From Escherichia coli (GTDB lineage Bacteria; Pseudomonadota; Gammaproteobacteria; Enterobacterales; Enterobacteriaceae): a stretch of 64,000 nt of DNA. The position numbers were made by a program. Of this stretch, positions 52,901-55,900 are shown piece by piece. The stretch lies in the NCBI RefSeq assembly GCF_051903065.1, contig NZ_CP178438.1; one strand, 5' to 3'. Positions within the stretch are counted from its first letter, which is position 1, and each line of letters starts with the position of its first letter.

Positions 52901-55900
52901 AGCCACGGTATAAACCGTGGCAAAATCCAACATAGCTAAAAATAATCAGGCGAGTGGTATGACTTAAATCTCTACGTCGCGGTTGCAATCTTTCGAGTAA
53001 ATATAGCTGAACGCTTCACCACGCCCTACGCCATAACCAGCCTGTAAAGAATAAGCGCCCATAAAGATGTAATCGCCTTTTTTCACCGGGATCCAGTTAT
53101 TGTCGAGGTTATAAACCCCCTGACCGGAAAGAATATAGGCACCGTGTTCCTGAACGTGTGTTTCGATATAACCATGGCTGGCACCTGGTGCAAAAGAGAG
53201 GATATGCATGTTCATATCAAAACCTAACTCTTTGGGCAGAAAATCCAGCAGGATCACATCATCCATACCTTCATAGTGAATGCGTTCCAGTTCGCTGGCA
53301 TTGCCAGAAACCAGCCACGGTGCATGGCCTTCTACCAGAACATAGCGGCGCTTGGTGATGCTGCCAACTTACTGATTTAGTGTATGATGGTGTTTTTGAG
53401 GTGCTCCAGTGGCTTCTGTTTCTATCAGCTGTCCCTCCTGTTCAGCTACTGACGGGGTGGTGCGTAACGGCAAAAGCACCGCCGGACATCAGCGCTATCT
53501 CTGCTCTCACTGCCGTAAAACATGGCAACTGCAGTTCACTTACACCGCTTCTCAACCCGGTACGCACCAGAAAATCATTGATATGGCCATGAATGGCGTT
53601 GGATGCCGGGCAACAGCCCGCATTATGGGCGTTGGCCTCAACACGATTTTACGTCACTTAAAAAACTCAGGCCGCAGTCGGTAACCTCGCGCATACAGCC
53701 GGGCAGTGACGTCATCGTCTGCGCGGAAATGGACGAACAGTGGGGCTATGTCGGGGCTAAATCGCGCCAGCGCTGGCTGTTTTACGCGTATGACAGGCTC
53801 CGGAAGACGGTTGTTGCGCACGTATTCGGTGAACGCACTATGGCGACGCTGGGGCGTCTTATGAGCCTGCTGTCACCCTTTGACGTGGTGATATGGATGA
53901 CGGATGGCTGGCCGCTGTATGAATCCCGCCTGAAGGGAAAGCTGCACGTAATCAGCAAGCGATATACGCAGCGAATTGAGCGGCATAACCTGAATCTGAG
54001 GCAGCACCTGGCACGGCTGGGACGGAAGTCGCTGTCGTTCTCAAAATCGGTGGAGCTGCATGACAAAGTCATCGGGCATTATCTGAACATAAAACACTAT
54101 CAATAAGTTGGAGTCATTACCGCGGCGCTTATATAAAAAGATTTGGCTGTCTTCGGCCTGGGCGTTAACAAACGTCATTAAGGAGCCTGGCGGGCAATAA
54201 AGATAGCCACCTTCGCTTAAGGCAAATGTTTTGCCTTCGGCTTTGGCAGTGATATTTCCAGAGATCACATACAGGAACGTTTCAATGCCTTCGCCACCGA
54301 AGCCCTGTTGGTTGCCACCGTTTTGATGCAGTGTGACCAGATAATCAACAAAAGAGGCACCCAGCTTTGGCGTGGAGAGGATTGTCGCGTCACAATTTTC
54401 AAAGCCCGGAATAATATTTTTTACCAGACCGTCTGGTGTTAACAGTGCGAAATTACCGTGTTTCACAATCGCACGGTTAGCCAGTAAATCATCGCGGTAA
54501 CCGGTGACGTTATTTAAATATCCCATTTATGACTCCTTATTTCTGCCAGGCAAGTTGATAAAGCATGAGTGCCAACGTTTTGACCCCTTCGGCAAGGTCG
54601 GTAATATTGGTGCGTTCCGCCGGGTTATGGCTGATCCCGTTGATGCTGGGGATAAAAATCATGCAGGTTGGTACGCGAGGCGCGAAAATTTGCGCGTCGT
54701 GCCCGGCACCACTGTGCATCACCCGGTAATTCAGTTTTTCACTTTCACACAATTCTGTCAGGGTGGCGACCAGGTCCTTATTCATCGGCACGGGTTCTTC
54801 GTCCATCCATAAATCGATATCAATACCAATGTCCATTTCATCGCAAATCGCCCGCATGTCGTTTTCTAACTGTTGGGTGAAATCACGCAGCACGGCGGCG
54901 TCGGTATGACGACAATCAATGGTGAATGTGGTTTTACCCGGCACCACATTCACCGTATTCGGGCGCGGCTCTACTTTCCCAAAGGTCAGAACCAGCGGAT
55001 CGCCCATCTTTTTCGCTTTTTCGATCGACTGATGGCAAATGCGACTGAAAGCGTAAACCGTATCACGACGATAACCCATCGGCGTGGTGCCTGCATGGTT
55101 TGATTCGCCGTTCAGCGTCACCGTATAGCGACGTTGCCCGACAATTGCATTCACCACGCCAATTGATTGCCCATTACTTTCCAGCACACAGCCCTGTTCG
55201 ATATGCAGTTCGACAAAGGCTTTAATATCCTGACGCGGAGTTAGCGGGGCGTCCGGCAGAGTAAATCCGCAAGCCTTCATCGCATCGACAAAACTATTTC
55301 CTTTGGCATCACAGATATTCCGCACGTCGTCAGGATTCGCCAGCCCAAAGATATTTTTGCTGCCCCAGAAAACATACGGGAAGCGGCTGCCTTCTTCTTC
55401 CGCCATCGCCACCACTTCAACCGTACGTAACGGCGCGCCGTATTGCGTTTTCAACCAGTCAATTGCCAGCCACGCCGCCAGCGCGCCGAATTGCCCGTCG
55501 AGGTTACCGCCGTTAACCACGGTATCGATATGCGAACCGCTCAGAACCACTTCCTGTGGATATTCGGTGCCACTCAGGCGACCGTATAAATTCCCCACTT
55601 CATCGAAACGTGTTTCCAGCCCACTTGCGGCCATTCTTTTTTTAAATTGCTGCTGGGTTTCCAGCCATTCCGGCGAATAAAGTAAACGGGTCATCCCACC
55701 CGTTGGGTCTGCGCCAAAAGAGGAAAGCCAGGGCAGCGTTTCTTCTATGGCTTGACGAAAATGTGTAATCATAAGAAAGTCCTGTCTCAATAATTATTGC
55801 GCAAAGGGATTTTTCGTTTCGTATGACGTGTTATAAAGCGCGTCGGAAATTAAATACTGGTAAATATCATCAACAATTTCGATGCCTTCGACGGCGGCTT

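Follow-up and report, generated by a model that had tools for sequence, protein, structure and literature searches.

Two simple IS1 insertions, in allE and in allF (fdrA), within the ALL cluster of an Escherichia coli lineage

We describe here the interruption of the chromosomal allE gene of Escherichia coli in a window of 64 kb (the whole stretch of DNA that was analysed). We consider it very likely that an IS1A-type element entered allE by simple insertion, that a second simple insertion took place independently in allF, and that the pair would disable the anaerobic oxamate branch. A first-pass annotation of this DNA had described a complete 768-bp IS1, with both terminal inverted repeats and insA/insB, lying inside the allE reading frame between intact 9-bp direct repeats, and all of these features are present (Table 1), so that its interpretation is on the whole supported, element by element. 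Two things are added to it in this work: an identical IS1 in inverted orientation in allF (= fdrA), which that annotation did not contain and which matters for both the phenotype and the structural reading of the locus, and a natural relative with empty sites, ECNB21-M121.

The element in allE (copy 1) is exactly 768 bp long, starts with GGTGATGCTGCCAACTTACTGAT (IRL) and finishes with ATCAATAAGTTGGAGTCATTACC (IRR), the two arms agreeing at 18 of 23 positions and forming imperfect inverted repeats. Its ends are directly adjoined on either side by the 9-mer GCGGCGCTT in a perfect 9/9 match, for which the chance probability at two fixed positions is 4^-9 (about 4e-6), and only 3 further occurrences of this 9-mer were found in the 64-kb window. 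In the numbering of the element insA occupies nucleotides 56-331, the insB' frame 250-753 and the slippery AAAAAAC 307-313; the identical IS1 copy in the genome of 23CRST027 carries the RefSeq annotation 'programmed frameshift'. When compared with the NCBIfam IS1 transposase model NF033558 (cutoff 100 bits), the insB' frame scored 145.6 bits and insA alone 91.3 bits, the latter over profile positions 1-81, and the two frames jointly span positions 1-199. Length and ends, overlapping frames joined at A6C, transposase profile and the 9-bp duplications of both copies in the window all agree with the IS1 family, whose members are described as 768 bp long, with a -1 frameshift at A6C making InsAB' and with duplications of 8-9 bp (PMC12428005).

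Table 1. Position of the features in the 64-kb window
Feature	Coordinates	Strand	Remarks
glxK	51585-52736	+	neighbour of allE, opposite strand
allE 3' fragment	52964-53353	-	codons 133-261 and stop; without its own start codon or promoter
Left 9-bp target-site duplication GCGGCGCTT	53345-53353		allE codons 133-135, K-R-R in minus-strand reading
IS1 copy 1	53354-54121	+	complete
IRL of IS1 copy 1	53354-53376
insA	53409-53684	+	91 aa; zinc-finger/HTH repressor and N-terminal transposase part; NF033558, NF050000
insB' frame	53603-54106	+	-1 frameshift with insA at A6C, giving InsAB' transposase
A6C slippery site AAAAAAC	53660-53666	+
IRR of IS1 copy 1	54099-54121
Right 9-bp target-site duplication GCGGCGCTT	54122-54130
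allE 5' fragment	54122-54526	-	codons 1-135, N-terminal cupin domain, promoter-proximal
allC (allantoate amidohydrolase)	54537-55772	-	intact; precedes allE within the allDCE operon
allD (ureidoglycolate dehydrogenase)	55794-56843	-	intact; opens the allDCE operon
fdrA/allF 5' fragment	57160-57283	+	nt 1-124; last 9 nt are the left CGCCCGCCA
IS1 copy 2	57284-58051	-	768 bp, complete, inverted relative to copy 1
fdrA/allF 3' fragment	58052-59604	+	first 9 nt are the right CGCCCGCCA

Comparison with known elements places copy 1 with IS1A. It is identical at 767 of 768 positions to the IS1A of K-12 MG1655, with position 444 as the sole difference, and at all 768 to copies that bear the IS1A annotation in numerous E. 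coli genomes. The K-12 element shares with it the 768-bp length, the sequences of IRL and IRR, the layout of insA and insB', the A6C site and the 9-bp duplication, and differs from it in base 444, which is changed in both copies of the window, and in chromosomal location. At this base (window position 53797 and the equivalent base of copy 2) the window has G where K-12 IS1A has T, a change from Ser to Arg in InsB, and the G is common among other IS1A copies of E. coli. The active type of IS1 corresponds to the IS1A/E consensus (PMC12428005), and the intact frames and ends of the element, taken with its near-identity to that consensus, indicate that it should be competent for transposition. Elements of this kind are widespread: of the 5426 complete E. 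coli genomes, 4970 contain IS1, and the median number of places per genome is 11.

As it is found in the window, allE is not an intact translatable gene, its minus-strand frame being split by 777 extra bases at codons 133-135. The proposal that excision of IS1 and one repeat restores a 261-aa reading frame was reproduced in silico: deletion of 53354-54130 yields an unbroken ORF of that length on the minus strand, from 54526 to 52964. Against TIGR03214, the equivalog model for (S)-ureidoglycine aminohydrolase (cutoff 200), the restored protein scored 338 bits, and it aligned from end to end with E. coli YlbA/AllE (PDB 1RC6), with 258 of 261 residues identical and the substitutions D12E, L138P and H142Y. 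In the interrupted gene the 5' fragment runs into the IRR of IS1, which adds 26 foreign codons and produces an ORF of 161 aa at 54041-54526. The predicted Mn-site residues E196, H198, H202 and Q236 sit in the 3' fragment, which encodes the C-terminal cupin domain, and E196-x-H198-x3-H202 with Q236 aligns with the E-x-H-x3-H...Q of the Arabidopsis UGlyAH 4E2Q, residues that are reportedly the Mn ligands in that structure. The order glxK, allE, allC, allD, fdrA is that of the canonical ALL cluster, with allE between glxK and allC, and the remainder of the cluster is intact, allE and fdrA aside. The operon structure allD-allC-allE, with allE as its last gene, has been described previously (PMC12535856), and the enzyme roles of the pathway genes are taken from PMC12535856 and PMC11326118.

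The second IS1 breaks fdrA after nucleotide 124 of the gene, and its excision in silico yields a 555-aa FdrA. It is identical to copy 1 at 768 of 768 positions and has its own perfect 9-bp duplication, CGCCCGCCA, at 57275-57283 and 58052-58060. The gene that it interrupts, allF, is the first of allFGHK, which provides oxamic transcarbamylase and carbamate kinase, and a delta-allF mutant produces no oxamate (PMC11326118).

A decisive comparison came from the locus as it would stand before both events. The sequence obtained by removing the two IS1 copies in silico (4410 nt) was used as query against the complete E. coli genomes, and in ECNB21-M121 it gave a single uninterrupted match with 1 mismatch, at window position 53337. 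At either site this genome has the respective 9-mer only once, so that the flanking halves of allE, the contiguity of which was the point on which the first-pass annotation could be overturned, are contiguous allE there, and each pair of repeats in the window is a single 9-mer in the empty-site relative. Over 49.5 kb ECNB21-M121 and the window differ by 12 mismatches, and their sole indels are the two IS1 copies. The mismatch within the query lies in allE on the minus strand, 8 nt from the IS1 junction, where the window has A and both ECNB21-M121 and K-12 have G (AllE P138L). The base of the window was not found among the top-ranked intact sites of the 5319 genomes whose site is intact, the best matches all being 99.8% identical, with 1 mismatch per 400 nt. 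It may represent drift in the allE pseudogene after its inactivation, a single event being insufficient to show drift.

Both insertion junctions were found at 100% identity in only 2 of the 5426 complete E. coli genomes, 23CRST027 (NZ_AP045789.1) and 23CRST031 (NZ_AP045800.1), both from human faeces in Ecuador, and allE::IS1 and allF::IS1 always occur together, each genome with one of them having both. These two genomes share with the window the insertion site, the orientation, the duplication, the sequence of IS1 and the second IS1 in fdrA, and 23CRST027 is 99.97-100% identical to the window over 64 kb. They differ from it by two extra IS903B elements, one between allE and allC (window ~54555-54563), the other in a hypothetical gene (window ~27700), and both are absent from the window. 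By this comparison the window represents the same clone as 23CRST027 and 23CRST031, somewhat earlier in its IS history. The earlier description of the event as a recent simple transposition thus holds as regards its being simple, and as regards its being recent it holds in a relative sense: the insertion is recent because it is later than the split from ECNB21-M121, and it is not private to the isolate, since two other complete genomes contain it, so that it is an inherited marker of a small lineage. RefSeq marks allE in these two genomes as a pseudogene in two pieces beside an IS1A transposase. The insertion is therefore already visible in the annotation of sister genomes, and it is of an already known type, a textbook simple IS1 insertion; a search of the literature for the allE::IS1 insertion or for its carrier strains found nothing relevant.

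Some further observations concern the lineage itself. Of the complete genomes, ECNB21-M121, 23CRST027 and 23CRST031 alone match a segment of allB (window 49300-49699) with an identity of at least 99%, and in 908 records it is just 90-95% identical; the ALL cluster allele of the source lineage is accordingly rare. At the other end of the window a giant ORF of 6925 aa (1335-22112) is intact; it has long internal repeats, and the annotation of the relatives names it SiiEA, a BapA-related adhesin, with a frameshift recorded in 23CRST027. Next to it (22116-~24277) the gene for a type I secretion ABC transporter is broken in the window, with an ORF of 585 aa, and the annotations of both relatives likewise give it as frameshifted.

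Could this arrangement have arisen otherwise than by two simple insertions? The two copies, identical to each other, opposite in orientation and separated by no more than 3.16 kb, have the geometry of a single duplicative inversion (intramolecular replicative transposition) or of homologous recombination between two IS1 elements. An inversion would nevertheless have parted the repeats, whereas each copy is still enclosed by a perfect 9-bp direct repeat of its own; moreover, the 3162 nt between the copies are collinear with the IS-free ECNB21-M121 and match it at 100% identity, the segment (54131-57283) thus not being inverted, and cutting out the IS1 copies is enough to restore the two split genes. 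An origin of this kind is extremely unlikely, and we consider it ruled out by the matched duplications and by the collinearity with the IS-free relative. Two IS1 copies bracket the cargo of composite transposons such as Tn9 and Tn1681, and the 4.7 kb of IS1-allE'-allC-allD-'allF-IS1, with inverted IS1 at both ends and two complete copies around a few kilobases, resemble them and could be seen as a block that arrived, or is able to leave, as a unit. In contrast to those transposons, each copy has here a separate duplication, the supposed cargo is in its native chromosomal place, and the unit was not found elsewhere. The flanks are the remaining halves of the same genes in the ancestral chromosomal order, no duplication surrounds the whole unit, and the outer flanks differ, GCGGCGCTT on the left and CGCCCGCCA on the right. 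None of the plasmids in PLSDB contained the inner segment with an identity of at least 99%; the 8 matches were chromosome-like records in which allE and fdrA are intact. We give virtually no credence to such a composite, whose origin or spread as a block is ruled out by the native order of the flanks, by the lack of a whole-unit duplication and by the PLSDB result. There is also a very slight chance that the insertion is an artefact in which the assembler misplaced a copy of IS1, a multicopy element with ~37 matching places in the related 23CRST027, repeats being a classic source of misassembly. Misjoins, however, do not produce a precise 9-bp target duplication, and both junctions recur, with 100% identity, in two complete genomes that were assembled independently. 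Two simple and independent insertions are accordingly the structural reading that we retain.

Whether selection has favoured the loss of the oxamate branch is a different matter. The site in allE is intact in 5319 of the 5426 genomes of the complete E. coli set (>98%), and probes of 400 nt were disrupted in 23 genomes for the centre of allE, 11 for glxK and 13 for allB. The excess of allE over the other two probes is at most two-fold and uncorrected for shared ancestry, and in our view it speaks for neither a hotspot nor selection; the proposal of allE as an IS hotspot, or as a case of convergent loss, was set aside on these counts, the genomes being phylogenetically non-independent. Independent IS1 insertions in or beside allE do exist in other, unrelated lineages, namely 13P484A, 2017.18.04CC, 23CRST050 and the group of YJ4, M505 and M719. 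In 13P484A the IS1 (1689-2456 of its locus) lies 12 bp from the site studied here and has the 9-bp duplication TACCGGAAC, and in the others the positions of insertion are taken from the lengths of the annotated fragments. These cases are alike in gene, element family and orientation, the shared orientation following from the design of the search and not constituting a finding, and differ in the points of insertion and in the isoform, which is sometimes IS1B, with 6 mismatches to the copy of the window. An adaptive loss, in which inactivation of the branch (allE and allF) was selected in a gut-associated lineage and possibly recurrently in E. coli, could draw on these insertions at other positions of allE, on the counts of disrupted probes, and on the presence of two independent insertions in one pathway within 4.7 kb, a second IS1 within 4 kb on either side being expected in ~6% of cases (an estimate from ~37 IS1 in 4.94 Mb). 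Against it, the excess is slight and drawn from related genomes, allE is intact almost everywhere, the ALL cluster is otherwise undamaged, and relaxed selection after the first insertion, or local hopping of IS1, equally predicts a second one. We consider adaptive loss unlikely. It is likewise decidedly doubtful that the paired insertions in allE and allF and the independent ones in allE reflect either recurrent selection against the anaerobic oxamate branch in some host-associated E. coli or a regional preference of IS1 for targets in the allDCE-allF segment.

Placing the two simple insertions into a sequence of events, an IS1A-type element would have entered allE with duplication of its 9-bp target GCGGCGCTT, severing the N-terminal cupin (codons 1-135 and the 26 codons derived from IS1) from the metal-binding C-terminal cupin. 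The N-terminal domain is thereby parted from the domain with E196, H198, H202 and Q236, so that the split gene should be unable to yield a working (S)-ureidoglycine aminohydrolase, and from this gene structure we strongly infer the loss of AllE activity. Since allE closes the operon allD-allC-allE, allD and allC would be spared polarity. An identical IS1 in the opposite orientation would have independently split fdrA (allF), the first gene of allFGHK, and because IS1 insertions are polar, allG, allH and allK are probably poorly expressed. Both insertions would have taken place after the split from the line of ECNB21-M121 and before 23CRST027 and 23CRST031 gained their extra IS903B elements.

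The phenotype of the double insertion is one that we infer from sequence. Together the two events would deprive anaerobic allantoin breakdown of its oxamate branch, leaving the first step after allantoate reliant on the spontaneous decay of ureidoglycine. This compound is chemically unstable, as Serventi et al. are said to have reported in 2010, and the allE null may for this reason be leaky. Deletion of allE delays recovery from nitrogen starvation (PMC7417836). A strain with allFGH deleted still consumes allantoin (PMC11326118), so that the release of nitrogen by AllB and AllC would persist.

For the tracking of lineages like 23CRST027 and 23CRST031 the junctions of allE::IS1 and allF::IS1 would provide two clean clonal markers, and the inverted pair of identical IS1 copies is a latent substrate that could mediate the inversion of allE'-allC-allD-'allF. 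Beyond the annotation of the strain the significance of the finding would be slight, allE being a dispensable catabolic gene and its interruption a case of ordinary and well-understood gene loss. The clone that carries both insertions is predicted to have no working oxamate branch, the ATP-yielding one in anaerobic allantoin catabolism, and to proceed without enzymatic deamination of ureidoglycine.
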